Shown here one piece after another: positions 369-64,000 of a stretch of DNA of 64,000 bases; position 1 is the first letter of the stretch, and each line of letters begins with the position of its first letter. This DNA comes from an uncultured virus (IMG/VR IMGVR_UViG_3300042868_009486) (Duplodnaviria > Heunggongvirae > Uroviricota > Caudoviricetes), in the IMG/VR virus record IMGVR_UViG_3300042868_009486, positions 1 through 64,000 of that record; one strand, given 5' to 3'. The translations under genes and the position numbers were made by a program. Below the pieces are notes generated by a model. The model did no database searches, had not been told where the DNA came from, and saw only the letters and a list, made by a program, of their open reading frames with translations.

Positions 369-839
369 ATGAAAAGAACTATAAGATTAACAGAATCAGA
401 ACTTATCAATTTGGTAAAAAGAATCATCAAAGAAGATGAAGACCAATGGGTGGCAGACTCACGAGAAATGGAAGATGAAACTGACTTTTCAAAAATGGAA
501 ATACAAGATATGCCTGAGTTTCAAAAATTGGTTAGAATACTTAAAAGAAATCCTGAAGCCGCTATGGAACTCCAAAGTGAATTGGGTGATGGGTTGAATG
601 AGGAATATGAGTATATGGATTATCAAGACGCTCAACCAAAAGAAATAGAAAAAGGTGAATACTGGAAAAGAAAATTAGCAACGGTTGGTCTTTATAGTCT
701 TATCGGTTTGGTTTCAGGAATTGCAATGGCTGGCGGAACATCTGCTGAAGATGTTTTACAACTGGCATTAGGTACCGCAGTTGGCGGAGGCGCAATTGCG
801 AACTCAATGATATCTACAGTGCACAGAAGAAAAAAATAA
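369..839 (+). CDS. leader-bearing hypothetical protein with C-terminal hydrophobic hairpin
   Basis: MKRTIRLTESELINLVKRIIKE leader; TATTTAT at 346-352; two Gly/Ala-rich hydrophobic segments. Confidence 0.75.
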   Translation: MKRTIRLTESELINLVKRIIKEDEDQWVADSREMEDETDFSKMEIQDMPEFQKLVRILKRNPEAAMELQSELGDGLNEEYEYMDYQDAQPKEIEKGEYWKRKLATVGLYSLIGLVSGIAMAGGTSAEDVLQLALGTAVGGGAIANSMISTVHRRKK

Positions 840-873
840 TAATTTTTAGTTCCGCAGACTAATATATATGAAG

Positions 874-902
874 ACCCCTTACTTTTTGTAAGGGGTTTTT
901 TT
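874..902 (+). terminator. intrinsic terminator
   Basis: ACCCCTTAC-TTTTT-GTAAGGGGT stem-loop followed by a T run. Confidence 0.8.
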
Positions 903-944: not shown

Positions 945-1136
945 ATGAAAACCAAACTTCCATTTACTGTTACATATACACAAGAAATGTCAGACAAGTT
1001 CAATAAAGAATTGAAGGAGTCAGGTAAATGTGCAGTAACAAATCCTAAGTTTTATGGTAAGTGGGATCTTGTTGAGTTTGGTACAACTGAATATGACACC
1101 ATGTTCAAAAAAAAAAGAACTAAAGTAAATGACTGA
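945..1136 (+). CDS. hypothetical protein
   Basis: ORF behind a TAnnTTTG element, overlapping the next gene. Confidence 0.6.
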   Translation: MKTKLPFTVTYTQEMSDKFNKELKESGKCAVTNPKFYGKWDLVEFGTTEYDTMFKKKRTKVND

Positions 1137-1746
1137 TATAATTAGAAGGATTCTTAATGAAATAAAATTTTCACAAGAAAGGGTTGAGGAACTTAAAAAA
1201 AAGTTTGGTTGGAGGTTTGTACAAAGTAAAAACCCTAAGTCAGGTAAAACATATAAAAAACTTCACATTTATACTTTCAAGAGTCCTAAATACAAATATA
1301 TAGTTCACATTGAAGAGTACGATTACGATTACTTTTTAATATCATTTTTCCCAAAACTAAATAAAGATTTTTATGTTAAACAATCTATTTTAGGGTCCAC
1401 AGGACAGGAACATTATGATGAATATACCTACCTGACAAAAGAAAATATACCACTTAAAATACTTACACTATTAATATCAGAAATGAAAGGTATATTAATT
1501 AAAAAACCTTACGCATCGTTCGGATATTTTGGTGCTCCTGATGTTAAAACAGGTGAAGACGAAGATTTATTTAACACAAAAAGAGTAAGAATTTATAATG
1601 AAATTATCTCAAACGAATTATCCAATACACATAAGATAATATCAGACCCAACTTTTAGTGGATCTTTAGTTTTAAATAAAGAAGTTTTACAAGAGTACCC
1701 ATTATTTGAAAAATATTGTATGGATATATTAGAATCTCATCTTTAA
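1129..1746 (+). CDS. leader-bearing hypothetical protein
   Basis: MTDIIRRILNE leader; 205-aa ORF. Confidence 0.7.
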   Translation: MTDIIRRILNEIKFSQERVEELKKKFGWRFVQSKNPKSGKTYKKLHIYTFKSPKYKYIVHIEEYDYDYFLISFFPKLNKDFYVKQSILGSTGQEHYDEYTYLTKENIPLKILTLLISEMKGILIKKPYASFGYFGAPDVKTGEDEDLFNTKRVRIYNEIISNELSNTHKIISDPTFSGSLVLNKEVLQEYPLFEKYCMDILESHL

Positions 1747-5788: not shown

Positions 5789-6532
5789 ATGACCGAAATT
5801 AAAATATCTCCTGAAATGAAGAAAGAACTTGTAAAGTTCAACCTCTATCTTCGTGCAATTATGGACGAAAATAAAATACATTGGGAGTATTATTACGATG
5901 GTAATGATGGTGGGTTTTATGATTCCTACGGACCATATGTGGGTTACCAATACGATGGTCAAATAGATTTAAAAAATCACATTATTGAATTTTTTACAGA
6001 TAAAGTAGATTTAATTACAAGTCATTATGAAGACCATATGTATGATTTAACAAGTTGTGATTTATGTAATGAACGAGGTAGTATGCATGTGCATTATAAT
6101 CCTACAAATTCTTCACTTGACTATAACTTTTATTATACAGAAAAAGAATCACATGATCACCAACAAATAAAATCATTTGAAGAATTATCTAGAATGGATA
6201 GTTGGTATAACACTGGTGACCCTCTATATAAAAAATTAAACGATGATAATTTTGTTAAACAATTAGTAGAACAAAACGGAGGGACAACTAAATTTGAAAT
6301 GATATATAATGGTTATGGTGATAGCGGTCAAATAGATGATACGCATTATTCTAATAGTGTTGAAACATTAGGTTATGAGGTAATTGATTTATTTTATTCA
6401 GGTTGGGAAAATAACGAAGGGTCTGATGGAACAATATTAATTGATTGTGATGATAAGAAAGTTATATTAAACCATACTTATTATTTTGAAGAAGATATTT
6501 TTGAAGAAGGTGGTGAAATAAGATTAGTGTAA
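5789..6532 (+). CDS. paralogous DUF6878-like acidic protein
   Basis: YNGYGDSGQID and GWENNEGSDG motifs, as in the upstream gene. Confidence 0.55.
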   Translation: MTEIKISPEMKKELVKFNLYLRAIMDENKIHWEYYYDGNDGGFYDSYGPYVGYQYDGQIDLKNHIIEFFTDKVDLITSHYEDHMYDLTSCDLCNERGSMHVHYNPTNSSLDYNFYYTEKESHDHQQIKSFEELSRMDSWYNTGDPLYKKLNDDNFVKQLVEQNGGTTKFEMIYNGYGDSGQIDDTHYSNSVETLGYEVIDLFYSGWENNEGSDGTILIDCDDKKVILNHTYYFEEDIFEEGGEIRLV

Positions 6533-7458
6533 TGAAAAAGTTGAACGAAGATATATTAAGAATTAAGGAGTTGATGTCATTGGTTGAAAGTGATCAATTG
6601 TCATTAAATTTTGACGAGACACCTGCTGATCAGGAAGAAGAGACACCAAAACCTGATGAAAAAGACAACTCACCCCAAATATCAACAGACTCAGACGAGT
6701 TCATTAAAAAGTTTAAAGAAAAAGTTTATTTTATATTAAAAGACTTATATAAATCTAATTGGGATTCAGACAAAAGTAGAGGACCTCGCGGAGGTGGTGG
6801 GGTAGTTGGTATTCATACTGTTTATGATTTATTAAAAGAAAAAGGTTTAAATGATTATGACCCTGAAGGTGGTGATTGGTCAATATTAAATTACTTTGAC
6901 ACAAATCCACAGGTTAGAAAAACATTAATCAATCAATATAAAACGGAAACAGGAAACATAATTAATAGTGTAAAAACTATGGATGATTTTATAAAGTGGA
7001 TGTCAGTAAGTAGAAATAAAATATTTAAAGACGGACCTATTTTAAGCAAACTTATCAAACAAAATACTGAATCACTATATCAAGGGGAACTAAATGAAAG
7101 AAAGGCTTATGAATACCTTTTGAAAATACTTGAAAACTTACCAGGTTGGAAGTTAAAAGGTAGATCGGTTCCTGGATCAAAATCTGATAGGGAAGGAATT
7201 GATTTTGTTATGGAAAAAGAAGGGACAAATGAGAAAGCTAAATTTCAAGTTAAACCTTTATCTTCATTAGAAAGAGTTGGTAAATTTTATAAAATAACCA
7301 GTTATAATATAAAAAACTTAGATAAAAAACCTGTTAACTATTTTGTTTTCGTTTCTAGTGGTAAGGACGATATTTATATATTTAGAAATAAGATTGGTAA
7401 ATATACAATCTTAGATAACAACACAATTCAATTTGAAGAGGGACCAATTCAGTTTTAA
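6532..7458 (+). CDS. leader-bearing protein with PD-(D/E)XK-like nuclease domain
   Basis: MKKLNEDILRIKELMSLVE leader; E...D.EGIDFVM...FQVK pattern. Confidence 0.5.
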   Translation: MKKLNEDILRIKELMSLVESDQLSLNFDETPADQEEETPKPDEKDNSPQISTDSDEFIKKFKEKVYFILKDLYKSNWDSDKSRGPRGGGGVVGIHTVYDLLKEKGLNDYDPEGGDWSILNYFDTNPQVRKTLINQYKTETGNIINSVKTMDDFIKWMSVSRNKIFKDGPILSKLIKQNTESLYQGELNERKAYEYLLKILENLPGWKLKGRSVPGSKSDREGIDFVMEKEGTNEKAKFQVKPLSSLERVGKFYKITSYNIKNLDKKPVNYFVFVSSGKDDIYIFRNKIGKYTILDNNTIQFEEGPIQF

Positions 7459-8591: not shown

Positions 8592-9620
8592 ATGAGTAAT
8601 TACCATTTTGATAACGCCGAAAAAAAATTAATGATTGCTGAATCAATCTTAAATGAGATGTCCGATAAAGAATTGGAAAGATTAATGGCTCGTGAGTTAC
8701 AAAAAATTAGATTAATACCATTGGATATGTTTGCAGCAAAAGAGGCTATATCTAATATTATTACTGCTGAAGTATCAAGAGGTACCATTAACTTCAATCG
8801 ACAGATTACAGGTTTAATGTCTTTAGACCTATCAACCGTAACACTTAGAAATAAATTTAGATTTGATAACTACTACAGAAGATTTGTAAACTCTAGAAGT
8901 CGTGGATTTGATTTTGAAGGACTCATTGCGGGTCTTTTAGATGCTGAAATATCAGAGAGTAAGATATCACCTTATGATATCATCACGACGGACGGTGGTT
9001 TACAATCACTTAAAACATTAAATTCATTAAGTGAATCACCAGTATTGAAATCAATTAAAACAAACTTTAAATACTATTTAGAAAATTTCCAAGGAGATGA
9101 TGAGTATAGAAGAGAATTGGAGTCAATAATAAAACAAGATAATCCGTTAAGGTTTTTAGTTGATAGCTCAGACCCAATATTTTTAGATATTGCAAAAGAC
9201 ATATTGATAAATGCATTATCTGAAATCGACGGAATGTTGGTTGGTATACCAATGAAAGATCAAAGAATTAAAATGTTCTATTTTAGTAAGGAAAAATTAA
9301 TTGAACTTGGTTTGCAAGCAGGAATGATTATGGCTCCTAAATCAAAAGGGGCAATGCAAATAAGATTTTCGTCAAAAATTTTTAAAGACCCGACAATTAG
9401 TGGTGAGTTACTTTTTCCCGACCTGACAAAAAAGGATTATGAAAATTTTCTAATAGGTGACGACAACACTACTCGAACAATCCAAACTTTAGATGCCTTC
9501 GGTAGAAAGTACGGGATTAATGGTTTAGGTAGACAATTACCCCAAGATGTTGTAATGGATTTAGCAAAGAGTGAATCATTTATTACTGATATGAGTTTTA
9601 TTATAGGTGACAAAAAATGA
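8592..9620 (+). CDS. putative restriction-endonuclease-fold protein
   Basis: RGFDFEGLIAGLL...PYDII...SLKT pattern; ILNE in the N-terminal region. Confidence 0.45.
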   Translation: MSNYHFDNAEKKLMIAESILNEMSDKELERLMARELQKIRLIPLDMFAAKEAISNIITAEVSRGTINFNRQITGLMSLDLSTVTLRNKFRFDNYYRRFVNSRSRGFDFEGLIAGLLDAEISESKISPYDIITTDGGLQSLKTLNSLSESPVLKSIKTNFKYYLENFQGDDEYRRELESIIKQDNPLRFLVDSSDPIFLDIAKDILINALSEIDGMLVGIPMKDQRIKMFYFSKEKLIELGLQAGMIMAPKSKGAMQIRFSSKIFKDPTISGELLFPDLTKKDYENFLIGDDNTTRTIQTLDAFGRKYGINGLGRQLPQDVVMDLAKSESFITDMSFIIGDKK

Positions 9621-9865
9621 AAATAATAATAACAGAAGATCAATTAGAGGAGGTGATAAGGAGGACTATTCAAAAAGGAAACTCTAAAAAACTTGTAGGT
9701 AAATCTAAAATGAAAACACCAATAGGGAAAATCGGAATACACCTTCCAATTATGGGGGAGGATGATCTTGAAGAAAAATGGTCCGAAAAATATAAAAAAA
9801 GTATCAATTGTAATAACCCAAAAGGTTTTTCACAGAAAGCTCATTGCCAAGGAAGAAAAAAATGA
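9617..9865 (+). CDS. leader-bearing small protein with basic Cys C-terminal module
   Basis: MKIIITEDQL leader; LEE|KWSEKYKKSINCNNPKGFSQKAHC tail. Confidence 0.7.
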   Translation: MKIIITEDQLEEVIRRTIQKGNSKKLVGKSKMKTPIGKIGIHLPIMGEDDLEEKWSEKYKKSINCNNPKGFSQKAHCQGRKK

Positions 9866-9939
9866 TTTGAAATTTGATATTTCAAAAAAAGTTATTTAGA
9901 TTTGTACTATTATTAATCATTTAAAAATAAACAAAAAAT

Positions 9940-10188: not shown

Positions 10189-10210
10189 TATTTAATTATA
10201 TATAGATTGA

Positions 10211-10234: not shown

Positions 10235-10256
10235 ATGCTTGAAATATTTATCTTAT

Positions 10257-10817
10257 ATGAAAATCATAATTACAGAATCACAATATAAATTAATAGAATC
10301 TTATTCTGAAGAAGAAAAAAAGTTTAAAAAGTTATTTTTTAAAATTTGGCAAAACGAATTGGACAGTACTGGTACAATAGATTTCGATCCAAAAATTGCT
10401 GACTACGTAAATTATAATCCACAAGACAGGAAAGAAATTTACGAAATGTATAGGGATTTTCTTGGTGGTTGGGATAAAATGATAGAAAAGTCATACCAAC
10501 TAATGGATAGAACATTTGACACTATGGATTATGATTTTAGGGGTGGATATAATTTTAAGTTTAAACCGCAGTTTCATAGTGACTATGAAGAAGATAATTT
10601 GATATTTGTTAATGGACCAATTGAAAGTGACGGTAAAGTAACTTTAATAATGACTGATGGCGAAACCCACTATTTAAAAGATTTAGAAGAAAATGAAGAC
10701 TTGTGGTGGGAAATTGATAGTGAAATTAAATCAGTAATTGAAGATATATTATATCAAGAAGTTACTAAAAAAACAGGAATAATGGTTGAGACAAATTTAT
10801 GTTGGATAAAAGAATGA
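10257..10817 (+). CDS. leader-bearing hypothetical protein
   Basis: MKIIITESQY leader; TATTTAT at 10245. Confidence 0.75.
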   Translation: MKIIITESQYKLIESYSEEEKKFKKLFFKIWQNELDSTGTIDFDPKIADYVNYNPQDRKEIYEMYRDFLGGWDKMIEKSYQLMDRTFDTMDYDFRGGYNFKFKPQFHSDYEEDNLIFVNGPIESDGKVTLIMTDGETHYLKDLEENEDLWWEIDSEIKSVIEDILYQEVTKKTGIMVETNLCWIKE

Positions 10818-11218
10818 AAATAATAATCACAGAAAGTCAGTATAGAATATTGTTGGAGTCAAATACAGATTCCATGCAAAGTCTTATTGACATGGCTTTT
10901 GATCAGGTAAAAGAAAATTGTGAAGGTGGATATTATATTAGATCACATCAAAATCTTATTTGTGACCCTGTAGATATGATTGAAGAAATTAAAGTAGTGG
11001 ACGTATCAAAAGTAACATCTATGGATTATTTTGAAAAAAATAAAATGGAAGTTATACACATAAAAGTTAACTGTTATGTTGATTCAATAAATGAATATAA
11101 TAATTTAGATAATTTTATTTATGAACTACAAGCAGAGGCAAGAAACATTATTGGTGGTAGATTCATTACTATAGAAATAGGAGAAATAATTAATAAAAGA
11201 AAAGACTTCAATTGGTAA
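10814..11218 (+). CDS. leader-bearing hypothetical protein
   Basis: MKIIITESQY leader; ATGA overlap. Confidence 0.75.
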   Translation: MKIIITESQYRILLESNTDSMQSLIDMAFDQVKENCEGGYYIRSHQNLICDPVDMIEEIKVVDVSKVTSMDYFEKNKMEVIHIKVNCYVDSINEYNNLDNFIYELQAEARNIIGGRFITIEIGEIINKRKDFNW

Positions 11219-11595
11219 TGAAAATAATAATTACAGAGAACCAACTTAATGAAATGGAAAAACACATTTATGATTATATAAATGATTTGTACGATGTAAG
11301 TGATATATCTTATGGTGAACAGGAAATCTATGATTTTGATAACCGTGAGTATGTTATGTCAGACAATATTTACTTTTATAGTGGGGACTTTAGTTACGGG
11401 AAAATGGAATTTGTTTTATACCAACAAGGATATGAAACAATAGGGGATGAAAGAATATTGGTAGGTCCGGTATTATTTATTGAAGACGAAAATAAAATAG
11501 AATTATTGAGTCAATTTGGTGAATTGTGGAAACCTGTGTTTAAAAAATGGTTTAAAGATAATTTTAACTATGATATTAAAACAATTGATGCATGA
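11218..11595 (+). CDS. leader-bearing hypothetical protein
   Basis: MKIIITENQL leader. Confidence 0.75.
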   Translation: MKIIITENQLNEMEKHIYDYINDLYDVSDISYGEQEIYDFDNREYVMSDNIYFYSGDFSYGKMEFVLYQQGYETIGDERILVGPVLFIEDENKIELLSQFGELWKPVFKKWFKDNFNYDIKTIDA

Positions 11596-12485
11596 AAATC
11601 ATAATTACAGAATCACAATTAAAAATGTTGACAGAAGCAACATCTTTAGCTGATGACGAAGATTTTAGAGAAACAATCAAATCATATGAGAACGAGGTTG
11701 TTGATGCGACAGGAAAACATTATGTATTTGATGACAAGGACCCTAAAAATCCAAAGACATTTGTTAGTTCATCAAATAAAAAAAGAGGTGGAACTTTAAC
11801 GATTGGATGGGGGCATACTGGTCCTGAAGCAAAGGTTGGTGCAAAGATTACAAAAACAAAGGCAGAACAACTTCTTACATTGGATATTATAAATGAAGAA
11901 AAGAAAACAAAAAACTTATTTCCTAAATACGACACTTACCCAACTTATATAAAAAAAGCTCTTGTTAATTCAGTTTATAGAGGAGAAGCAAAAAAAGGTT
12001 ATAAATGGGTTGAGGCAATTAATGCTGGTAATTGGGATGATGCTGCGGCAAAATATCTACAAGGTTGGAACATTGATTTCTCACAAGCAAATGACCCAAG
12101 ATATAAAGGTGGTGTTGCTGATAGAATGGTTACTAATCAAGAAGCCTTTAAAAAATATGCTAAAGAATTGAAGGGAGATAAAAAAACTAACTCAGATAAA
12201 AAACCACAATCAAATAATAGTAAAGAAACTGAAAAACAGAGGTGTTTAAAAATGGAACCCATAGATGCGGCAAAAAGACCCGAATGTGATAAGTATTTCA
12301 AAAATGATTACTATATGGATTACGGGTATGATTTCTCAAAAGAATTTTATACAGTAAAATCAGGTGATACACTTTCTAAAATAGCGTCTCGATACGATAA
12401 AAGTGTTACTGTAGATAGTTTAAAAAAATTAAACGACTTGAAATCAGATAAAATAGAAGTTGGGCAAAAAATAAAAATCAAATGA
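11592..12485 (+). CDS. leader-bearing phage lysozyme (GH24-like) with C-terminal LysM
   Basis: IKSYE...LTIGWGH lysozyme motifs; YTVKSGDTLSKIA...LKKLN...I.VGQKIKI LysM. Confidence 0.75.
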   Translation: MKIIITESQLKMLTEATSLADDEDFRETIKSYENEVVDATGKHYVFDDKDPKNPKTFVSSSNKKRGGTLTIGWGHTGPEAKVGAKITKTKAEQLLTLDIINEEKKTKNLFPKYDTYPTYIKKALVNSVYRGEAKKGYKWVEAINAGNWDDAAAKYLQGWNIDFSQANDPRYKGGVADRMVTNQEAFKKYAKELKGDKKTNSDKKPQSNNSKETEKQRCLKMEPIDAAKRPECDKYFKNDYYMDYGYDFSKEFYTVKSGDTLSKIASRYDKSVTVDSLKKLNDLKSDKIEVGQKIKIK

Positions 12486-13066
12486 ATATTCTAATTACAG
12501 AAGCACAATATAGTAAACTCACCGAAGACAATCTTCGTGAGTTCTTGTATTCTTTTTGGGACAGACAAAAAAAGAATGGGGAAGAACCTTTTTTGGATGA
12601 GATGTTATACCACGTTTTAGGTATTACAAAAAATAGTATAGAAGATTACCAACAAGTTAGACCGATATGGTATCGTTATAATGGTGGTAGAGAAATATTA
12701 TACGATAAATTAGTTAAGGAAATAAGTGATAAAACATTCAGATTACAAGACGACTCACAGAATTTAAACGCCGATTTTAAAGTTGTTGGATTTGATAGTT
12801 ATGAACTGAGTATCAAAATGGAAGTTGTCCTTTTAATGTTAGATGTGGACGGTAATGGTGAAATTGAAGCATTAATTTATGAAGATGATTACGGAGAAAA
12901 TTACCGAATGGAAATAGTTTCAATTTATGAAGCGTTAAACATTGCAAGAGAGTTTTACGAGACAGGTGATTTAACAGGTTATCTTAGAAGTGTAGCTTAC
13001 GATTATTTTTATAATTTACTTGAAAAATACGGATTACCAATCGATGTTGAAGTTGACATAAAATAA
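12482..13066 (+). CDS. leader-bearing hypothetical protein, distant paralogue of 10257..10817
   Basis: MNILITEAQY leader; shared W..Q/E...G...Y...GG layout. Confidence 0.7.
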   Translation: MNILITEAQYSKLTEDNLREFLYSFWDRQKKNGEEPFLDEMLYHVLGITKNSIEDYQQVRPIWYRYNGGREILYDKLVKEISDKTFRLQDDSQNLNADFKVVGFDSYELSIKMEVVLLMLDVDGNGEIEALIYEDDYGENYRMEIVSIYEALNIAREFYETGDLTGYLRSVAYDYFYNLLEKYGLPIDVEVDIK

Positions 13067-20495: not shown

Positions 20496-20566
20496 ATATT
20501 ACAAAACTTTAATGTGGTTAAGTCTAAATGTGGACTATAATAATCTAATAATATATTTATAAAGAT

Positions 20567-26360: not shown

Positions 26361-26371
26361 TATTTATTATT

Positions 26372-45811: not shown

Positions 45812-46105
45812 ATGGAAAGAAGAATAACAGAATCAGAAATCAATAGAATCGTTAATAGAGTTATTAACGAAGAAATGGAAGACAAAGAATTAAGATTTGG
45901 GGTCGCATATAACAAACAAACTGAGTTGGTTGATGATGTCATCAACAGGATTAAAGAATATGGTGAAGAATATACAAGAGCCCTTAATAAATTGAACTTT
46001 GATTTCCCAACCGAGAAATATAAAAGAGTTGAAAGACCAAGAAGAGATAATTTTGAATTACCAAAGGGTGTTAGAGTACAAAGTAGTGTATTTGGTGATG
46101 AGTAA
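45812..46105 (+). CDS. leader-bearing hypothetical protein
   Basis: MERRITESEINRIVNRVINEE leader. Confidence 0.75.
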   Translation: MERRITESEINRIVNRVINEEMEDKELRFGVAYNKQTELVDDVINRIKEYGEEYTRALNKLNFDFPTEKYKRVERPRRDNFELPKGVRVQSSVFGDE

Positions 46106-49832: not shown

Positions 49833-50414
49833 TTATGGTTCTTGAGATACTTGGGACATCCTACCAAACCCTTTGAATACCCTTCCATAATAACCACTTA
49901 AGACATTTTTTTGAATATTTACACCCTTATCTGTTGAAGAGTGTATCATATCTATAGTTCCATCTTCATTTACTGCGTGAACAATACCAATATGATCAAT
50001 ATCACTACTTTCTGTATTTGCATCAAAAAATATCATATCACCTACTTGTGCATTTTCTTTATCTATTTTCTCAGCACTATTAAAAAATGATTGTGCGGTA
50101 CCTCTCGGTATTGAAACCCCAGCATCATTATATGCCCATGTTACTAATCCACTACAATCAAACCCATCACTTTCACTTTCAGATCCCCACACATAAGGTT
50201 TACCAATTTGAGATTCTGCCGATGCAATAATTTTTGAACCTACTTCTGAAGTATATACATCTTTTGGTTTTCTTGTCTTAACACTTGACGAGTCTGAAAA
50301 ATCCAAAGACCCAATAGTTTGACCAACAGAGATTCCGCTCTCAGGATCGATCATCGATCCGAACTTACCACCTTGTTCGTAAATGTTTTCTTTGAGTATT
50401 TTTAATAATTTCAT
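49833..50414 (-). CDS. leader-bearing NlpC/P60 peptidase
   Basis: GKPYVWG...FDCSGL...GD..FF...HIGI...MIH; MKLLKILKE leader. Confidence 0.9.
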   Translation of the reverse strand: MKLLKILKENIYEQGGKFGSMIDPESGISVGQTIGSLDFSDSSSVKTRKPKDVYTSEVGSKIIASAESQIGKPYVWGSESESDGFDCSGLVTWAYNDAGVSIPRGTAQSFFNSAEKIDKENAQVGDMIFFDANTESSDIDHIGIVHAVNEDGTIDMIHSSTDKGVNIQKNVLSGYYGRVFKGFGRMSQVSQEP

Positions 50415-53675: not shown

Positions 53676-55256
53676 TTATCTGTTTGGGTTATTTGCCTTT
53701 CTTTTTCTTTCAAACGCCTTATCTCTTTTTTTGTACATATTAGAGAGTCTTCGATCTGTTGTGTTTTGTGAAAGCCACTTACGACCACCGAATAATCCTT
53801 TTCTTAAGTACATTGATTTTTCTTTACTTCCTGGAATTAAAGAAAAATCTATATCAAAACCACCACCTTTGCGTCCTGTATATTTCAGTACGATAATTTT
53901 CTGTGTTATTTCACCTTTAAGTTGGTTCACTGATGCTCTAGTCCTTTGTTTTGTTTTTGTAACCGAAAAATCTATTAATATTTCAGAATATTGACCGGGA
54001 TTCGGAAATTCAGATGTTTTTGTTTCGTCTACTTTTCCACCTGTATTTGTGATACGAATTTCCGTCTCGATATCACTCGACCAATCAAAAGACTGTGATA
54101 ATTTAATTCCTGGTGTTTTTGCGATGTCAGTAAGAACCGCCTGAATTAACTTATTACCCCTTTCTTTCGCTAATTTAAAGTTTTTAATATTATTTCCTTT
54201 ACGATCTAAACTACCAATATCTTTGACTTTGGTGCCATTATTTTCATGAGTATAATCTAATATTTCATCTCTAACCCAAGTGTTACTTGCTGAAGACAAT
54301 ATTGATGCACTAGTCACATTAATTGTATATGTGCTATCACAGTTACCATCACCACATTCGATCATTTCTTTAACTGTAATTGCCGGATCACCATCACTAA
54401 ATGATACTGATGTTTTATAAACTATATCCAAAATTGTTTTCATCATGTTTGGGAGGAACATTTGGGGGTCAGAAGAACCAGCAACATACTTTCCAGGGAT
54501 TTTAGGAACAACAATTTCAAAACCACCAACGGTCGTGTATTTTTCGTCAGGTGACAGTTCCTTAATAGTTAATGGTTTAGATGCTCTCGCAAATAATGAT
54601 GATAGTATAGGTTTATTAATTACATTTGATGAGACATCACCCTCTTTTTTATCGTAATAAAAATATGAACCTTGTTTTGATAATATAGTACCTTCTTTAG
54701 AATTCGCCTCATTAAGGTTAAAGACTTCTTGATTCATTACTTGATTAAGACCCTCTAATGTTGATAAATCGCCTTTCGATGTCACACTTAACTTAACTAC
54801 CCCAACATCTTCGGGTTCTATAACAGAAAAGGACCATCTTTGTGATTTTTTAAAAAACTTTCTTAGTTTTTTTACACTTTCTTTATCTTCCTTATTAACT
54901 TTCTGTCCGTTGATAACCGCTTCTATTGCATTATAAAAACCTTCTGCAAACATATTTTTAGTTTCTGCTGGTAGTTTTTGATAATCCCCATCTTGTATTT
55001 CTGCAGACATTTTAGAATATACATCACCTGCGGTCGTCAGTTCTTTATCTAGTTCTTTATCGTATTCAAAACCTAAACCAATTTTAGTTGGACTTCTTTG
55101 AATTCCTCTCATGTTGAATTCGTTACCAAAAAGATCTGCACCTATATTAAAACCTCTTCTCTCTGTTTCTTGTTCATTAATTACTTTACTTGGGTCGTAA
55201 TTTGTCATAAAAGAAAACCTTTTGATTTCTTCTAATATTTTTTTTTCATTTTCCAT
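53676..55256 (-). CDS. leader-bearing large hypothetical protein
   Basis: ILEEIKRFSFMTNYDPSKVINEQ leader; TATTTAT on the - strand at 55272-55278. Confidence 0.75.
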   Translation of the reverse strand: MENEKKILEEIKRFSFMTNYDPSKVINEQETERRGFNIGADLFGNEFNMRGIQRSPTKIGLGFEYDKELDKELTTAGDVYSKMSAEIQDGDYQKLPAETKNMFAEGFYNAIEAVINGQKVNKEDKESVKKLRKFFKKSQRWSFSVIEPEDVGVVKLSVTSKGDLSTLEGLNQVMNQEVFNLNEANSKEGTILSKQGSYFYYDKKEGDVSSNVINKPILSSLFARASKPLTIKELSPDEKYTTVGGFEIVVPKIPGKYVAGSSDPQMFLPNMMKTILDIVYKTSVSFSDGDPAITVKEMIECGDGNCDSTYTINVTSASILSSASNTWVRDEILDYTHENNGTKVKDIGSLDRKGNNIKNFKLAKERGNKLIQAVLTDIAKTPGIKLSQSFDWSSDIETEIRITNTGGKVDETKTSEFPNPGQYSEILIDFSVTKTKQRTRASVNQLKGEITQKIIVLKYTGRKGGGFDIDFSLIPGSKEKSMYLRKGLFGGRKWLSQNTTDRRLSNMYKKRDKAFERKRKANNPNR

Positions 55257-56004: not shown

Positions 56005-56688
56005 ATGAAAAAAGGATTAAACCCTAAACTTGACACCGGTGATAAAATCATTCTTGTCCATATGGATGGGGAGGATGTTGGTCCCGGAACTAAAGGTGAA
56101 GTTATAAAAGTAGAAAAAATACCTTCTTTCGGTGGTTCCGTTGATTACCAATACCGAGTGAATTGGTTTGATAATGATGGTAAAGTAATCAGTACTCTTT
56201 CATTATTACCCGATGTTGATGGGTGGTTAATGGATGAAGAAGAAAAAAAGGAAGACATACAAGAAATTAATTTTAAAAATCTTGATGACCTAATGGCTAA
56301 AGGTGATTTTTTAGCATGTTTTTCAACAAGAGATTTAGATGAGATATATAAGTTTTTGGAGCTTGAAAGAAGAATCGGTTCACACAATATGGCTACGGAA
56401 GGTGGTAAGTTTTTATTAATGGGTCCTGACTATATAAAAGATTTTTTCAAATTACAAAGTTACCACAGAACTCCTGATGAAGATAAGCAGATACTTATAG
56501 ATAAACTTGTTGGTCGATCCCAAGACATTTATGATTTGTTTGTAAGGGCATCCTTAAAATATCTTGAGAAAAAAAACGAAGAAATAAGTATTCCGAGGGT
56601 TCAAAGAACTATGGGTCGTTTGGCAACAACGGCTAAACAATTTTGGATGTTTGGAGGTAATAAATTTTTAAATAAAGAAATAGAATGA
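56005..56688 (+). CDS. hypothetical protein, SH3-like (DUF4314-like) N-terminal module plus a second module
   Basis: GDKIILVHM...PGTKGEV...VNW...LSLLPDVD.W; IQE junction; TATTTAT at 55994. Confidence 0.6.
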   Translation: MKKGLNPKLDTGDKIILVHMDGEDVGPGTKGEVIKVEKIPSFGGSVDYQYRVNWFDNDGKVISTLSLLPDVDGWLMDEEEKKEDIQEINFKNLDDLMAKGDFLACFSTRDLDEIYKFLELERRIGSHNMATEGGKFLLMGPDYIKDFFKLQSYHRTPDEDKQILIDKLVGRSQDIYDLFVRASLKYLEKKNEEISIPRVQRTMGRLATTAKQFWMFGGNKFLNKEIE

Positions 56689-57179
56689 GAGGATATTCAA
56701 TAATGTCTAATGATGAAAGACAAGAAATATTAAAAAAACACAGTGAATTATATAATGGTTATGCGGTAGGTAATATTCCATCTAATATGACTCCATTGAG
56801 GGTTTACGACGCCACTGGTGATAAAGAAGGAATTACTGTTAATTCTAGAGGTGAGGTTGGGAACTACAGAAATCATAATATTAATGAGATTACAGCAAAA
56901 CCACTCAACTATGATGAGATTACACCGGCGTATGACTTTGACTCTAAAGGTCCACAACAATCTATGACACAAATGGGTATGGGTAAAAGACCTTATGATT
57001 TTGAATCAAAGGGACCTTCGGATGTTTATGAATATGAAGTGGAGGAAGAAGTTTACGAAGAATCTAATTTAGATGATTTACTTAATAAGGATGAAGATTT
57101 ACAACAACAAAGAGATCAAATTGAGGAGAATGTATATAAATCATTAGATATGTTCAAAAGATTTCAAAAATACAATTAA
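56685..57179 (+). CDS. leader-bearing hypothetical protein
   Basis: MSNDERQEILKKH; internal YDF(D/E)SKGP repeat. Confidence 0.7.
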   Translation: MRGYSIMSNDERQEILKKHSELYNGYAVGNIPSNMTPLRVYDATGDKEGITVNSRGEVGNYRNHNINEITAKPLNYDEITPAYDFDSKGPQQSMTQMGMGKRPYDFESKGPSDVYEYEVEEEVYEESNLDDLLNKDEDLQQQRDQIEENVYKSLDMFKRFQKYN

Positions 57180-58855: not shown

Positions 58856-59305
58856 ATGAAAAATTTACAAGAGAGCATATCACGCATCAAAAATTTGATG
58901 AATATCTTAGAAGGATCAACGGAGTTTACAAAAGATCCGTATGGTGACTATGCGGACGACCAAGACCCAAGACAAACAGGACCATCACAATATGGTGTAA
59001 ATCCAGAAATGGACAAAGAAATGGATAGTTATGATTCTGATGGGATGGGTGAAGGTGAAATCAAAGAAGAGGGTGAAGAAACTGCAACTACAACAGATAC
59101 TACCACAGATACCACTACTGATACCGCATCTTCAGGGGGAGGTACTGTAAGTAAGTGGGAAAGTGGAGTCAATAGATCTAAGGGAAACCCTGTCGGGAAC
59201 ACTGTTTGGGATAGTGGGAGAACTAAAGGTCCGACTTACCAAGGTACGGGTTATAAATGGACTTCAGGAAGAGGTTACGGACCAACAGGAAAATACGCAT
59301 CATGA
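58856..59305 (+). CDS. leader-bearing low-complexity protein with W-x-S-G repeats
   Basis: MKNLQESISRIKNLMNILE; KWESG, VWDSG, KWTSG. Confidence 0.75.
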   Translation: MKNLQESISRIKNLMNILEGSTEFTKDPYGDYADDQDPRQTGPSQYGVNPEMDKEMDSYDSDGMGEGEIKEEGEETATTTDTTTDTTTDTASSGGGTVSKWESGVNRSKGNPVGNTVWDSGRTKGPTYQGTGYKWTSGRGYGPTGKYAS

Positions 59306-61428
59306 TGGACAAAGATTTATCACTAAATATTGAACTACTTAGACAATTATCATTAATCAATTTTGATAGATCTAAGACTTTAATGGAACAAACCGTTAAA
59401 AGTGATAGATTAGGTTCAGAAGGGCAGTTCCAACCATTAATTGATACTAACAGACCATCTAAAGACACGACAGTTGCATATAGAGTTTTTGAAAAAATTA
59501 AAAAAGAAATAAACAAAGATTCATACTGGGTTGAGTTTTGGAAATGGGGTACAGATGAGGACGGATTACTAGAATCATTAAAAACCTTAAAAAACAAAAA
59601 TCAGTATGACATACTTTTAAAATTAATACACAAAAATTTTCCCGAATCGGTAGGGTTAACAATAATTCAGTTTTTACAACAACAAGAGTTTAGTGTTGCC
59701 CAAGACCCATTTTTTCAAGAACTTAATAGGGATGTTAATATGGCTTCTGAAATACAATATCAGAAAAATGACAAATGGTTAATACAATATCAAAATATTC
59801 TTCAAAAATTTAATCCATATGAAAAATATTCTTATGAATCAGTTTTTGACCCATCCACAACAATAGCCAAACAAATGATACCTCCATATACAAGAGAACT
59901 TTTACATGTTGTGTTACCCGTATCTGCGGTATTAGTTGCAATAGCGACGGGTGGTATTGGAACTAGTTTAGGTTATGGATTAGTAGAGTTTTCACTCGAA
60001 TTATTAGATGCTGCTATTTATGCCACGGTAGATGGTGATATATATATGGCAGGATTAGGTATGGTATTTGCTTTAGTGCCTGGTTTTACTCTTTTGGCAA
60101 AATACCTAAAGAATATGGGCATACCTAAGTTCAAAAAGTTTTTAGAAAAGTTAGGTTTATGGAAAGCAGGAAAGATCGGTTCCGAATCGTTAAGTTCACA
60201 AGAAAGACAAGCTTTAAATGAATTTATTGAGAATCAAGACTATTATGTAAAATTGGCACTTAAAACTGCCATGAAAAATGTAGTAACCAAAACACTAATG
60301 ACTCTAACTAAAAATGTAGAAAAGTTTTTAGAATTTTTACTATACTTAGTAAAAAAATCTTTGTTACCTGCAAATTTTTTAACACAAGCAGGTCTTGTAA
60401 TGGGAGGTGGTTTTATGACATGGGACGCAATCGCAAGTGGTCTTGGAGTTTGTAGGTCGTTTAGTCTACAAGACCTTGAAGGTTCAGAAAATAAAATATT
60501 ATCTCTCTTAGGTAAAATTGGCGGAGCAACACAAAGATTTGCTGAAAGATGCGATACAGAAGAGAAAGAAAAACTAATTGATGACATAGAGAAACAACTT
60601 AGTACTTTAAAGGATATTGTTGTCATGTCATTGGAACAAATAATAAAATCTAATCTTACATTTAGTGAGAAAAATTTTAAGAATACTTTTATGTATGAAG
60701 TTGTTTTTATTCAGTATGTTCTAAAAAAACTAGGTATTAAAAGTGATCAAAAAGTTGCTAGCTATAGCTACGATAGTAAAAATATGATTTTGAACTTTCA
60801 GAATGCTGAAGAAATAAGTAGTGTCAAAGTGTATAGTGTTTACGGTAGAGAAATGGCATCAAAAAATAATGATGAAAAAACTAACATACTTGTTGACATG
60901 TCTAAATTACAAGAAGGGGTATATATAGTTAATATTACATTATCGGACGATACAAAACGAAACTTCAAAATATTTTCTTTGAAAAAGTCGTCTCCCGCAT
61001 ATAATTTGGGTGCCGTTAATTCATCATTCAAATGGGGATATTATGATAAATACACTGAAAATGTAATTAAAAAATATCAAAAAAATAGAGGATTGAATCC
61101 TGACGGTGTTTGTGGAAATGATACATTAGAATCATTATTGGAAGACTCCAAAAAATTTGACAAAATAAATAATTACGGTAATATTTCTTTAGATTCAAAA
61201 TCAATAAAATTAGCTATAGAACAAGCGAGTTCTCAAATCGAAAAAAATCAACTTGAGTGGGAAAAGAAGAATGAAAGTCAAGTCACTAAAGAAGAAGTAC
61301 AGGAGGAATTAAACAAACAAAAAGGAAAAAAAATAAAAGAAATTACCGATGATTTAAATGACCTCGAGTTTGATGAAAATATGTTAAATATGGTAAGTAA
61401 AAAATCAGACACCTTGATAAAGAACTGA
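59302..61428 (+). CDS. leader-bearing large protein with hydrophobic helices and a split PG-binding domain
   Basis: ELLRQLSLINFDRSKTLMEQ; GTDE..L; hydrophobic mid region; GYYDKYTE..IKKYQ..RGL.PDG.CG..T. Confidence 0.75.
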   Translation: MMDKDLSLNIELLRQLSLINFDRSKTLMEQTVKSDRLGSEGQFQPLIDTNRPSKDTTVAYRVFEKIKKEINKDSYWVEFWKWGTDEDGLLESLKTLKNKNQYDILLKLIHKNFPESVGLTIIQFLQQQEFSVAQDPFFQELNRDVNMASEIQYQKNDKWLIQYQNILQKFNPYEKYSYESVFDPSTTIAKQMIPPYTRELLHVVLPVSAVLVAIATGGIGTSLGYGLVEFSLELLDAAIYATVDGDIYMAGLGMVFALVPGFTLLAKYLKNMGIPKFKKFLEKLGLWKAGKIGSESLSSQERQALNEFIENQDYYVKLALKTAMKNVVTKTLMTLTKNVEKFLEFLLYLVKKSLLPANFLTQAGLVMGGGFMTWDAIASGLGVCRSFSLQDLEGSENKILSLLGKIGGATQRFAERCDTEEKEKLIDDIEKQLSTLKDIVVMSLEQIIKSNLTFSEKNFKNTFMYEVVFIQYVLKKLGIKSDQKVASYSYDSKNMILNFQNAEEISSVKVYSVYGREMASKNNDEKTNILVDMSKLQEGVYIVNITLSDDTKRNFKIFSLKKSSPAYNLGAVNSSFKWGYYDKYTENVIKKYQKNRGLNPDGVCGNDTLESLLEDSKKFDKINNYGNISLDSKSIKLAIEQASSQIEKNQLEWEKKNESQVTKEEVQEELNKQKGKKIKEITDDLNDLEFDENMLNMVSKKSDTLIKN

Positions 61429-61469
61429 TAAACTATATTATTTAAATAATTAGGGTATATTTATATAAA

Positions 61470-64000
61470 ATGAAAAAAGAACTCATATCTGAAATATCGA
61501 GAATACAGGAACTCATGGGTGTTCAAAAACTAATTGTTGAACAAGGAACTTGGTTAAAAACTTTAGCAATCAAAGCACCTAGATCGTTTGATAGTTTTAT
61601 GACAATATTAAAGTCTGTAAGACAAAAGGGCGTTAAAATAACTGATTCGGAATTAGATGAAATACAACTCAAACTAATTGAAGCTGGTGGTCTTACTGAT
61701 GATGAAATTGAAAATCTGATGAAAGTTTTAAGAAATGACATCGAAGTGAGAAAAATACTTTCTACTACAGATGATTTTTTATCTGATTTGGCAAATAAAT
61801 TCCCTGACGATGCCGTTCCGAATACATCATTGGCGGGACTTTCCAAAATTAAACTTAATCCCGATCAAATAAAGAAAATATCAGAAGATGCCGTAAAAGC
61901 ATTACTTCGTAACAGAAACCATCCAATGAATCGTTTATATACGCTATTAGATGAAACTTTTTACGAGGCGATATATGGAATATCCACATCAGGACAAAAG
62001 TTAAATAATGTTGACGAAGTATTTGATTTGATCGACGATAACATTAATTACATAATTAAACACAATGTAAAAACGGGAAAAATTGACCCGTCGATAGTGG
62101 ATCCAAACTTGCTTTTTCAACAAACATCAGAATTCTTAAGAAATTTTTCAAAAACAAAACAGTTACTAGATGATATGGTTGAAAACAAACAAGTATTCAA
62201 CTATCCAAAAAGAACAAAAACTGTAAAATATGGGGACGCCCCTTTAGGTTTAAACGCTGATGAGGTTATTAAAAGCATTGGTGGACAAGGAGTTGATGCA
62301 AAGTTTTTAAGCAAATACGAAGAATTATTACAAAAAAATCAGGATGAATTAAACGACCAACAAAAACAATTTATAAAAGATGTTGATGATTTCAAAAAGG
62401 GGATTGATGTAAATCTTGATGACTCCCTTGAATTTGTAATTAGATCAGAAAGATTGGAAGAATTAGGAAACACATTTAAAATTTTGAGTGCGAAAAATGT
62501 AAATTTTGATTCATGGTATGTTAAATATTTTAGACCATTATTTAGATGGTGGGTTGCAAATTTTGAAGTATTAGTTGATGCAGTAATCAATAGTACCTTG
62601 AAACCTAAATTTGAAACATATGCTAAAGAATTTGAAAAGGCGTTCGGAGAGGGATTGGCAGCATATAGAAATGTTAGTGAAAACCCAACAAAGTTAGATC
62701 CATATTATCTTTTTAAAATAAAAGATAGATTACTAAAACTACGATCTGAAATTATTTTGGATCCGGCAAAATATAGTCGAGAACTTTTTGTAGAAGATTT
62801 GTGGAAGGCTTTCAAAGAAAACGCGGTTAAGAAACTTACAACCCAACAAGATATAGAGTCATTCCAAAGTTTTTGTAAAGTGGTTGATGAACAACCTCCG
62901 GGTTTTAGATCAGCATCTATTAGAGACCTTTTTAATAAAGCATCTGTCGATGAGGGTGGTATGGACTTTAAAAAAATGTCAGAAGAAACTAGTAAAAAAT
63001 TCGAAGACATGTCCAAAACCGTAAAAAATAATGAAGTTACCACAGTTATTAAGGACAAAATGGGTGAGTTTATTATGAACAGTAAAGTACTGTCATGGTT
63101 TACGACAGGATCTTGGAAGACACCTAGAGAGGTTGAGAGATTATTGGCAACAAAGGGATATAGAGGAAGGACGATTTATTACAACACATTAAAAACTATT
63201 GGTTTAAGATATATTTTAGTTCCGTTTGTTGCCGGATTACTCTCTGCTATTTTTGACGCATTCCAAAAGGCGAGAAATGTAGTTGGGATGGACACCAAGG
63301 ATAAAAATTTATTTGAGGCTTACTGGTTACCCGAATATATCGATTTTATATCAGGTAAGTCAATTGTAGAATTTGGGTTTGAGCAATATATGGGTAAAAT
63401 ACCTGGAGGTAATGAATGGACCGACGTACTACAAATCGCAGTTCCAGGATTTGCGGACAACACGATAATTCAACTTTATAACAGGCTTAGTTATTATAAA
63501 GACAACCCTGGTGAGTATGACAATATTGTGGATGCAACTAAAGCGGCAGTAGGAGAGAAATCTAATCAAGAAATAATTAAGAAAAATGATAAGATAATTG
63601 AAAAGACTAACAATCGTTTGGAGGAGAGAGTTGAAGAAGTTGGTTATGATCAAATAATTAAGACTCAACAAATTGCTCTACCGATTTTTAAAAATCGAGT
63701 AGACGACTTAGTAAAAGAGGGAATTATCGATAAAGAACAAGGAGAATTTGTAAAAAACAATATGAAATATGTTCCAAAGTTACCCAAGGATTACTTAAAT
63801 ATGGTAAAACAAAAACAAAAAGAAATGGTTGCCGCTGGTAATGCGGGTGAATTGTTGACAAAAATGAACACAATATTTGGTGTGTCAAATATTGATATAA
63901 CATCAGTATCAATCCCACGAGGGGTGGATTTAGGGTCTATAGTCTTAAATGGTGATAATGTACAATACTTAGTAGTTCTACAAAAAAGAGATATCTACTC
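61470..64000 (+). CDS. large leader-bearing protein running off the window end (not in ORF track)
   Basis: MKKELISEISRIQELMGVQKLIVEQ; TATTTAT at 61458; frame open at spot checks near 63180 and 63900-64000. Confidence 0.75.
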   Translation, partial: MKKELISEISRIQELMGVQKLIVEQGTWLKTLAIKAPRSFDSFMTILKSVRQKGVKITDSELDEIQLKLIEAGGLTDDEIENLMKVLRNDIEVRKILSTTDDFLSDLANKFPDDAVPNTSLAGLSKIKLNPDQIKKISEDAVKALLRNRNHPMNRLYTLLDETFYEAIYGISTSGQKLNNVDEVFDLIDDNINYIIKHNVKTGKIDPSIVDPNLLFQQTSEFLRNFSKTKQLLDDMVENKQVFNYPKRTKTVKYGDAPLGLNADEVIKSIGGQGVDAKFLSKYEELLQKNQDELNDQQKQFIKDVDDFKKGIDVNLDDSLEFVIRSERLEELGNTFKILSAKNVNFDSWYVKYFRPLFRWWVANFEVLVDAVINSTLKPKFETYAKEFEKAFGEGLAAYRNVSENPTKLDPYYLFKIKDRLLKLRSEIILDPAKYSRELFVEDLWKAFKENAVKKLTTQQDIESFQSFCKVVDEQPPGFRSASIRDLFNKASVDEGGMDFKKMSEETSKKFEDMSKTVKNNEVTTVIKDKMGEFIMNSKVLSWFTTGSWKTPREVERLLATKGYRGRTIYYNTLKTIGLRYILVPFVAGLLSAIFDAFQKARNVVGMDTKDKNLFEAYWLPEYIDFISGKSIVEFGFEQYMGKIPGGNEWTDVLQIAVPGFADNTIIQLYNRLSYYKDNPGEYDNIVDATKAAVGEKSNQEIIKKNDKIIEKTNNRLEERVEEVGYDQIIKTQQIALPIFKNRVDDLVKEGIIDKEQGEFVKNNMKYVPKLPKDYLNMVKQKQKEMVAAGNAGELLTKMNTIFGVSNIDITSVSIPRGVDLGSIVLNGDNVQYLVVLQKRDIY

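Follow-up and report, generated by a model that had tools for sequence, protein, structure and literature searches.

Why do about 40 otherwise unrelated genes of a single virus begin with the same few short peptides? The question is raised by a stretch of 64,000 nucleotides, hereafter called the window, which covers positions 1 to 64,000 of the IMG/VR record IMGVR_UViG_3300042868_009486 from an uncultured virus of the Caudoviricetes. A preliminary description of this DNA, made from the letters alone, had pointed out 43 open reading frames (ORFs) carrying one of five recurring N-terminal leaders, and had proposed that these leaders load a large set of proteins into the phage head. The leaders were examined here by computation in the window, in the whole contig and in related phages. 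The results favor the view that they are probably portable capsid-addressing propeptides of a T4-type jumbo phage, removed by its head protease.

Shared leaders on unrelated proteins of the window

The window represents the first 64 kb of a single virus contig of 78,576 bases, with a GC content of 30-35% and with nearly all genes on the + strand. A crude non-overlapping gene call gave a total of 99 ORFs on this 78.6-kb contig. All 43 coordinates of the preliminary description corresponded to an ATG start that was followed, on translation, by the leader described. The consensus sequence is MKIIITESQ[YL]xxLxE for leader A, MKKIIRLTESELxxLVKRVIKE for leader B, MKxLIRxILKEE for leader C, xLQExIxRIKxLMG..hxE for leader D, and hhTE[SE]EKxxIxxx[HY] for leader E (h, hydrophobic residue). 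The families grade into each other, and hybrids between D and C are found at 26668, 27099 and 30085.

The first ~20 residues of all 99 ORFs were compared pairwise by the best ungapped 16-mer BLOSUM62 score, without use of the motifs of the preliminary description. A score of 30 or more was reached by 102 of the 4851 N-terminal pairs (2.1%), against 0.10% of internal-window pairs and 0.10% of pairs of shuffled N-termini. Single linkage at a score of 30 gathered 40 of the 99 ORFs into one cluster, which includes 39 of the 43 sites described; the remaining member, 38351, is probably spurious. Four sites were left out of the cluster: 44192 and 55256(-), which form a pair of their own, and the weaker 50414(-) and 59302. 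The bodies behind the clustered leaders are mostly unrelated, as had been claimed: an all-versus-all blastp of residues 36 onwards gave just seven body pairs at E<=1e-3, those still detectably related including 19856/21175 and 22032/23349.

The similarity had also been said to end at a [L/I/M]-x-E site. The motif [LIVM]xE ends at residues 3-25 in 39 of the 40 clustered ORFs, against 27 of the 59 others and 43% of internal 23-residue windows, and the stricter [LI]xE is present in 38 of the 40 against 22 of the 59. Clustered ORFs usually hold two [LIVM]xE sites, one at residues 5-11 and the other at residues 13-24. The p-value of this motif overstates the case, because no more than about five independent leader families underlie the 40 clustered ORFs. 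The leader is absent from the UvrC, thioredoxin, FKBP, methyltransferase and signal-peptide proteins of the window, again as described.

Two known kinds of N-terminal signal were tried and rejected. A Sec or lipoprotein signal peptide does not fit, as none of the 43 leader proteins has a transmembrane (TM)-like segment at its N-terminus; classical signal peptides occur on other, non-leader ORFs of the window. The double-glycine leader of the bacteriocin type has the motif L-[ST]-x-x-E-L-x-x-[IL], which leader B resembles, but all six copies of leader B end in [KSN]-E and not in GG.

Leaders in related phages

The nine residues of leader A, written as a degenerate DNA pattern, were found in at least 133 stretches of IMG/VR, on contigs of up to 322 kb among the matches listed, and the listed matches yielded 125 distinct proteins, the bodies of which differ greatly. 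In 596 Gb of prokaryote (bacterial and archaeal) genomes, the same pattern gave only four matches, all on contigs of metagenome-assembled genomes (MAGs). The leaders are shown by these pattern searches to be specific to this phage clade.

Profile models of the leaders, a check proposed in the preliminary description, were built from the window and run over relatives. They matched 33 of the 328 ORFs of G004, a 281-kb record (96% complete, 87,610 encoded residues) that is the closest near-complete relative of the window, and 31 of these 33 matches started at residue 8 or earlier. In 131 IMG/VR loci with 2397 distinct ORFs, a total of 327 N-termini were matched (A 201, B 50, C 30, D 46), in addition to 18 'internal' matches, most of which are mis-called starts because a Met stands directly before the motif. 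Leader B occurs in 10, 3, 7, 12 and 6 copies in five large records.

The 113 leader-A genes compared contained 75 distinct 27-mers, and the conserved Ser of leader A has a TCN codon in 71 genes and an AGY codon in 29. Selection on the leader is shown by this synonymous variation to act at the protein level. The leader codons are moderately biased to A-ending synonyms (ATA 56% versus 34% in the bodies, ACA 65% versus 45%). In a non-redundant set of 74 leader-A proteins, 70 have L or I at position 13, and Y, L or F predominates at position 10. The last residue of an [LIVM]xE falls within residues 13-18 in 46 of the 74, to be compared with 11.6% for internal windows; conservation vanishes after this point.

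The boundary between leader and body is also visible in the protein encoded at 10257, for which 172 homologues were found. In the alignment of its orthologs, the leader is conserved, the following linker is acidic and variable, and the body is conserved. An AlphaFold2 (AF2) model of this protein has a mean predicted local distance difference test (pLDDT) value of 80, with residues 1-6 as coil, a low-confidence helix at residues 7-15 and the body from residue 19; the first two 10-residue blocks have mean pLDDT values of 57 and 62. A Foldseek search of the model against the PDB gave nothing at E<=0.001. One homologue, P0096, is deposited within a MAG of 'Candidatus Fonsibacter' on a contig of 536 bases, which is probably a phage fragment binned by its low GC content.

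Phage group, head genes and prohead protease

The contig is, on the evidence of its sequence, a fragment of a T4-type jumbo myovirus of freshwater Bacteroidota. Blastp matches in G004 were obtained for 50 of the 99 contig ORFs, and these are syntenic with positions 264-281 kb plus 1-28 kb of G004. The group agrees with the published bS21 phages of freshwater Bacteroidetes, described as myoviruses of 293-331 kb with 31-33.7% GC, for which a Flavobacterium host was predicted from one spacer (Chen et al. 2022, PMC9723584). A conserved block of genes for the large terminase subunit (TerL), portal, prohead protease and major capsid protein is described in the same study (PMC9723584). The bS21 gene itself was found in three of the five leader-bearing records searched, and no bS21 match was found in G004. 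In G006, the bS21 gene and the prohead protease gene are 0.7 kb apart and on opposite strands; the loci concerned are L137:10644-10829(-) and the protease regions of G005 and G006.

G004 encodes Terminase_6N, an intein-containing Portal_T4, Peptidase_S77 and Gp23, together with tail sheath, tube and baseplate proteins and a T4-like replication set. Its portal gene (L136:6958-9735) is interrupted by the intein, which carries an HNH endonuclease. The search for a gp21-like prohead protease, also proposed beforehand, identified Peptidase_S77 in all four near-complete (>=90%) leader-bearing relatives searched. Over 13 leader-bearing records, S77 scored above the Pfam curated cut-off in eight, and the five misses were all 36-71% complete. 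The link between leaders and protease is drawn via relatives only, because the contig of the window itself carries no head gene. For this protease, at least 7,933 homologues at E<=1e-10 were found in metagenomes, the best 120 of those listed being at least 83% identical.

The preliminary description had further suggested looking for the motif on scaffold and capsid proteins, and conserved hydrophobic-x-Glu sites were found on both in the relatives. The capsid protein has a conserved LINE/A about 60 residues in (here and below, a slash marks the position behind the Glu), within the region that aligns with the T4 gp23 propeptide. The leader profiles gave no significant match to the capsid protein, the portal or the scaffold N-terminus of G004. 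A complex prediction for the S77 protease of G004 with residues 1-45 of the 10257 protein scored 0.00, which argues neither for nor against an interaction.

Between the portal and protease genes of G004, where T4 has the core proteins gp67/gp68, a 242-aa protein is encoded (L136:9755-10483) with 4.1 [LI]xE per 100 residues, rank 2 of 189; by the same measure the scaffold-like protein described below is not singled out (rank 38 of 189). G007 (269 kb) has two different head modules, L162 (27-39 kb) and L161 (229-241 kb), each with a portal, an S77 protease, a scaffold-like protein and a gp23-type capsid protein, and the capsid proteins of the two modules are 32% identical to each other's group. 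The double module could represent a chimeric assembly, a satellite or a genuine second capsid.

Leader D and the tail of the scaffold-like protein

A tie between leaders and head was provided by family D. A putative scaffold-like protein with 16% Glu is encoded between the protease and the capsid protein of the relatives. Its tail reads ...NLIESKTYENPQF(L/M)RM(K/R)D(L/I)MxK(L/I)(K/Q)K in six of seven relatives and ...QVLSESKAYENPQFRRMKDLMSKLK in G002, the motif RM(K/R)D(L/I)M being conserved in all seven. The C-terminus of the prohead protease of the relatives shares ...DLMK(K/R)L... with it. The pattern R[IM]K.[LM]M occurs just three times in the 87,610 residues of G004: twice at residues 9-10 of D leaders, and once at residue 486 of the 495-aa scaffold-like protein. 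In the contig of the window, all three occurrences are at residues 9-10, and in the ORFs of the related loci 13 of the 14 are N-terminal and one is C-terminal. A relaxed form of the motif occurs eight times in the window, seven times at residues 9-11 and once at the C-terminus of the 59-aa protein encoded at 37864. Leader D is, as judged from this motif, a copy of the C-terminal tail of the scaffold-like protein.

D tags were also found at the C-termini of cargo proteins in relatives, with six matches at an independent E-value (i-E) of 0.5 or below. One of them is an M23+VanY peptidoglycan hydrolase that ends in ...QLNE/EIYRIKDLMKKII, so that L-x-E precedes the C-terminal tag. A D tag also lies inside the 904-aa mosaic protein of the window, at a module junction. 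The predicted function of the tag would be independent of position, and its presence at the N-terminus, at the C-terminus and between modules agrees with this. A single body module, ...YSPAGKE..., is headed by a different leader in each of three relatives (C, D/C hybrid and D), and in the window it is embedded in the 904-aa protein, with a degenerate ...YLRESE before it. By this comparison, the tags are demonstrably swappable between cargo modules. In every arrangement, tag-hxE-cargo, cargo-LxE-tag or scaffold-like body-LIE-tail, a hydrophobic-x-Glu stands between tag and body, which is what an address that is to be clipped off would need. In the second, divergent head module of G007, the scaffold tail reads ...FARWQKLAGIK; a search for co-variation with a DNA pattern for this tail, made for this one module, found the tail itself and one match with two mismatches, at control level.

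Proteins behind the leaders

The cargo named in the preliminary description was recovered in part by Pfam. Lysozyme with LysM (11592), NlpC/P60 (50414(-)) and PAP2 (49251(-)) were confirmed, and the flavodoxin-like body at 17313 is retained as a lead only, FMN_red being annotated on 15-89% of the members of its ESM Atlas neighbours. The nuclease fold and the ART-like domain were not confirmed in the window; ART-PolyVal gave a sub-threshold match in one relative.

For the relatives, Pfam was run on 150 proteins taken from 197 non-redundant leader candidates, and 23 of the 150 non-redundant leader proteins were matched. Nine of the Pfam-annotated cargoes are cell-wall enzymes or binders without signal peptides. 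The domains fused to leaders include lysozyme (with or without LysM), a SleB-type hydrolase, a glucosaminidase, PAP2, two GNATs and an alpha/beta hydrolase, and further a P-loop kinase, a pterin-4a-carbinolamine dehydratase and an ECF-type sigma factor. Wall hydrolases lacking signal peptides and a soluble-type PAP2 would fit a periplasmic role at entry, and the sigma factor, acetyltransferases and kinase would fit an early takeover of the host.

Leader genes of the window

The genes described below lie on the + strand unless marked (-). Leader A begins the genes at 9617..9865 (MKIIITEDQLEE..., 82 aa) and at 10257..10817 (MKIIITESQYKLIE/S, 186 aa), the latter encoding the conserved core protein of the clade, with leader, variable acidic linker and body. 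They are followed by genes at 10814..11218 (134 aa), 11218..11595 (125 aa), 11592..12485 (297 aa, the phage lysozyme with LysM recognised by Pfam, without signal peptide) and 12482..13066 (MNILITEAQYSKLTE/D, 194 aa). Separate copies are found at 36494..36865 (123 aa), at 39004..39846 (MKVLILESQYVSLME/D, 280 aa) and at 48100..48651 (183 aa), where a Pfam match to DUF6576 stands immediately behind the leader. Leader B is carried by the genes at 369..839 (MKRTIRLTESELINLVKRIIKE/D, 156 aa), 31117..31461 (114 aa) and 40985..41356 (123 aa), and in a short form by those at 34039..34302 (87 aa), 35130..35405 (91 aa) and 45812..46105 (97 aa).

Leader C first appears at 1129..1746 (MTDIIRRILNE/I, 205 aa). 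A tandem array of nine leader C genes with MKxLIRxILKE/E occupies 19856..23352, with starts at 19856, 20290, 20567, 21175, 21593, 22032, 22400 and 22723, and then at 23349, where the gene runs on. This last gene (23349..26063) encodes the 904-aa mosaic protein, in which at least four modules are joined, each of them a leader-bearing gene of its own in relatives, and which may be a polyprotein or a recent gene fusion; its internal leader-like stretch (RLQESIRSILRED..., residues 534-554) is encoded at 24948..25010, at a module junction. A weak leader C-like start (MKLLKILKE/N) is found on the 193-aa NlpC/P60 peptidoglycan peptidase (49833..50414(-), Pfam).

Leader D is found at 6532..7458 (MKKLNEDILRIKELMSLVE/S, 308 aa), at 17313..18095 (260 aa, the FMN-reductase/flavodoxin-like lead) and at 26372..26671 (MNLQEQISRMKSMMGVINE/S, 99 aa), the last being followed by two genes at 26668..27518 (starts 26668 and 27099) with the hybrid leader MNLQExIRKILKE/E, which starts as D and ends as C. 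Another D/C hybrid begins the gene at 30085..30573 (162 aa), and D leaders are present at 30766..31116 (116 aa), at 48640..49251(-) (203 aa, the PAP2 phosphatase recognised by Pfam, in which no TM-like segment was found), at 58856..59305 (MKNLQESISRIKNLMNILE/G, 149 aa) and at 61470..64000, the window part of an 890-aa protein that extends to contig position 64142, just upstream of the tail-fibre genes. Extended leaders of the D type end in ...GRVISE/Q at 44192..44521 (109 aa) and in ...SKVINE/Q at 53676..55256(-) (526 aa). A weak extended leader, ...SKTLME/Q, stands at 59302..61428, where the start is ambiguous (ATG 59257 or 59302) and the body has PG_binding_1, a Por_Secre_tail-like stretch and two TM-like segments. 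Leader E genes are located at 34608..35051 (LSSEEKNRIREQH, 147 aa), 37320..37778 (ILTESEKNEILEMH, 152 aa), 42980..44167 (ISENDKRHIMSLY, 395 aa) and 56685..57179 (MSNDERQEILKKH, 164 aa). The 59-aa protein of 37864..38043, the sole non-N-terminal match of the relaxed motif in the window, has a C-terminus, ...KLRFLMNKVSKL, like the motif of the scaffold tail and D tag.

An upstream signal and neighbouring genes

The sequence TATTTAT was found upstream of 33 of the 99 contig genes and 79 of the 328 genes of G004, for example at 10239-10256, 26360-26371, 30073-30084, 36482-36493 and 48088-48099. Leader genes have it more often (21 of 43) than the other genes (12 of 56), and in G004 it also precedes protease, adaptor and baseplate genes. 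Its two preferred distances from the start codon (-11/-12 and -19 to -24) suggest almost leaderless mRNAs. At 10212-10256 and 36449-36493, TATTTAT and a leader gene come directly after a G+C-rich hairpin with a T-run, and this terminator-promoter cassette resembles the mobile PeSL cassettes of T4-type phages.

Few other contig proteins were recognised by Pfam and PHROGs; those recognised are thioredoxin, FKBP, an N6/N4 methyltransferase, DUF932, a UvrC-like nuclease and several peptidoglycan enzymes. The UvrC-like protein (46757-48031(-), 424 aa) combines a GIY-YIG domain with the UvrC RNase H endonuclease domain and is shorter than bacterial UvrC. Two proteins, at 15566-17131 and 50521-52755, carry a classical signal peptide together with a type-IX secretion sorting domain (Por_Secre_tail; CHU_C with a PKD domain), and it seems that the type-IX secretion system of the host is used by the phage for a second class of exported proteins, which lack the leader. 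Giant collagen-repeat tail-fibre genes fill the last 14 kb of the contig.

Proposed role of the leaders and alternative explanations

In the reading that we favor, a short amphipathic peptide (7-25 residues, in five related families) would cause an unrelated protein to co-assemble with the scaffolding core in the procapsid, and in family D the tag would do so as a mimic of the tail that closes the scaffold-like protein. Cleavage by the gp21-type (S77) prohead protease would follow, behind the Glu of one or more hydrophobic-x-Glu sites that separate tag from cargo, and the freed cargo would remain in the head and be delivered with the DNA. What we infer from the sequences is that the tags bind the core or the capsid protein and are cleaved off, and that the cargo is present in virions and is ejected into the host. 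The capsid-loading interpretation of the preliminary description stands in part. Each computational check proposed with it gave a favorable result; it gains from the profile matches, the S77 protease, the hydrophobic-x-Glu sites on head proteins, the identity of tag D with the scaffold tail and the swappable tags, and it loses from the lack of a head gene on the contig itself and from cargoes that are not evident weapons. The word 'arsenal' is an interpretation.

A number of observations weigh against capsid addressing. No capsid, portal, terminase or prohead protease gene was found on the 78.6-kb contig. The assignment of the scaffold-like protein is based on gene order and composition, and T4 gp22 is not similar to it (BLASTP, E=4.5). 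No head-protein counterpart was found for leaders A, B, C and E, only D being linked to the scaffold tail. Profiles of leaders A and B gave a sole match to the T4 genome, at E=0.06 in an open frame of 34 aa. A tblastn search with the leader proteins 23349, 11592 and 48100 and a 30-aa leader-B peptide found no relative among 50,697 phage records, the sole match being a Vibrio phage, to the lysozyme part. In the cultured Flavobacterium phage immuto, none of the 117 ORFs of a 40.8-kb stretch matched a leader profile, and profiles A and B gave no match to the whole record. Leader conservation continues past the first possible cleavage site, and hydrophobic-x-Glu would also be expected from any Glu-rich amphipathic helix, the 40 leaders counting as about five independent families. 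The leader-protein bodies are acidic on average (Asp+Glu 16.6%, Lys+Arg 13%), and T4 internal proteins are basic. No use on injection is obvious for pterin-4a-carbinolamine dehydratase, the sigma factor or the kinase. Finally, the scale would be unprecedented: about 43 of 99 ORFs here and 31-40 of 328 in G004, far beyond the four T4 proteins of the capsid targeting sequence (CTS) type.

Three other explanations were considered. The tags could be interaction helices for a hub outside the capsid, either a phage AAA+ protease or chaperone, for which they would be degrons or delivery signals that time turnover, or a cytoplasmic complex or condensate. G004 has a 740-aa ATP-dependent protease (phrog_4871) and another peptidase, chaperones and a Clp protease are reported for the bS21 phage group (PMC9723584), and such a hub would be suited by short amphipathic tags spread over a great many proteins, among them enzymes of cytoplasmic type and a sigma factor. 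We consider it unlikely, since it leaves unexplained the identity of tag D with the C-terminal tail of a protein whose gene stands between those for the head protease and the capsid protein, the hydrophobic-x-Glu of the T4-protease type at the end of every family, and the predominance of peptidoglycan hydrolases lacking signal peptides in the annotated cargo; in addition, no partner gene was identified. Common descent would dispense with targeting and cleavage: genes would have been duplicated in tandem and their bodies would have diverged, with an N-terminal folding or oligomerisation helix retained. The many tandem arrays with overlapping stop and start codons (9617-13066, 19856-26063, 26372-27518), the few bodies that are still related (19856/21175, 22032/23349) and the intergrading of families A-E agree with such a history. 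It is nevertheless improbable, because one leader is found on truly unrelated folds (lysozyme, PAP2, NlpC/P60, sigma-70, GNAT, P-loop kinase, M23), one body module has different leaders in different phages, the tag is also C-terminal or internal, and the leader is placed outside the fold in the AF2 model.

A signal at the level of translation would locate the function in the first codons, which would form an optimal start region or nascent peptide on nearly leaderless mRNAs without a Shine-Dalgarno sequence in the Bacteroidota host, perhaps together with the phage bS21. The very short 5' leaders suggested by TATTTAT at 11-12 or 19-24 nt upstream of the ATG in 33 of the 99 genes, the bias to A-ending codons in the leaders and the presence of bS21 in three of the five relatives searched are in its favor, and phage bS21 is proposed to select phage mRNAs (PMC9723584). 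The amino acids are, however, kept through synonymous change and through switching between the Ser codon families; conservation extends over 15-25 residues with helical periodicity and a terminal Glu; and the same tag occurs at C-termini and inside proteins. Moreover, the most highly expressed structural proteins and all 24 G004 proteins of the structural or replication PHROG category lack the leader, and G004 has leaders yet no bS21 match. This explanation appears to us very unlikely.

If the leaders are capsid-addressing propeptides, these abundant freshwater phages would inject an order of magnitude more proteins than T4, and about 10-40% of their 'hypothetical' genes would be assigned to one and the same cellular destination. 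Foreign proteins could be loaded into the capsids of Bacteroidota phages with these tags as off-the-shelf parts, and the mimicry of the scaffold tail would provide a concrete mechanism for the recognition of a capsid targeting sequence. A bolder version is offered tentatively, as a possibility somewhat short of even: the clade would run a multi-address system of cargo loading, in which at least five interchangeable tags, one of them copied from the capsid-binding tail of the scaffold itself, are each read by a component of the prohead core, 30-45 proteins per genome (cell-wall hydrolases, a PAP2 phosphatase, acetyltransferases, kinases and an ECF-type sigma factor among them) are loaded and released by S77, and a whole customisable proteome is injected. 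Such a proteome would breach the envelope and reprogramme host transcription before any phage gene is expressed, and recombination that joins a tag to a gene would be all that is needed to gain new cargo.

Comparison with known systems

In a literature search, the leader strings were present in no paper, and no paper was found on CTS-like tags in uncultured or Bacteroidota phages. The bS21 phages (PMC9723584) belong to the same organism group, and bS21 was present in three of five leader-bearing records searched, unlike in G004. The words 'leader', 'motif', 'promoter' and 'propeptide' have no occurrence in the main text of that study (PMC9723584).

Processing of many head proteins by gp21 relatives is known from phiKZ and SPN3US (gp175 / gp245), at redundant sites (PMC9026906, PMC7411985, PMC10052503). 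As described there, these phages have a large capsid with tens of internal proteins, and a diverged gp21 relative cuts after Glu in a short motif; cleavage sites are redundant within the propeptides, and several pieces result from the processing of some proteins. In the literature consulted, no shared transferable leader family on unrelated proteins is described for these phages, unlike the present case, in which the leader is a recognisable swappable module.

In scaffolding proteins and HK97-type prohead proteases, with their C-terminal tails, and in encapsulin cargo, with its loading peptides, a short terminal peptide suffices for recruitment to the inner capsid surface. The tags described here resemble these in that tag D shares its motif with the tail of the scaffold-like protein, and in that the protease tail shares ...DLMK(K/R)L..., but they differ in being copied onto dozens of unrelated proteins, mostly at the N-terminus, and in being coupled to a putative protease site.

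The closest parallel is the CTS of T4. In T4, gp21 cleaves behind the Glu of L/I-x-E, a tag made up of the first 10 residues of IPIII is enough to bring foreign proteins into the head, and the internal proteins of T-even phages are diverse except for the CTS (PMC9026906, PMC3012670). In the T4 literature consulted, recognition of the CTS is described only as an affinity for the core. Like the CTS of IPI, IPII and IPIII and the propeptides of Alt, the present leaders are short N-terminal peptides on unrelated proteins and end in L/I-x-Glu; in both systems the cargo is diverse and fast-changing, and the relatives of the window phage have the T4-type head set together with S77. The differences are that there are five leader families here versus one, and 30-45 tagged genes per genome versus about four; that the tags are longer and usually have two candidate sites; that one family is also found C-terminally or between modules; and that the host belongs to the Bacteroidota. 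The leaders may work like the CTS, and by sequence comparison they would not be its members by descent. The kind of system is thus already known from the T4 CTS, and what is new is the set of five unrelated tag families, the 30-45 tagged genes per genome, and the predicted copy of a scaffold tail placed at either end of a protein or between its modules.

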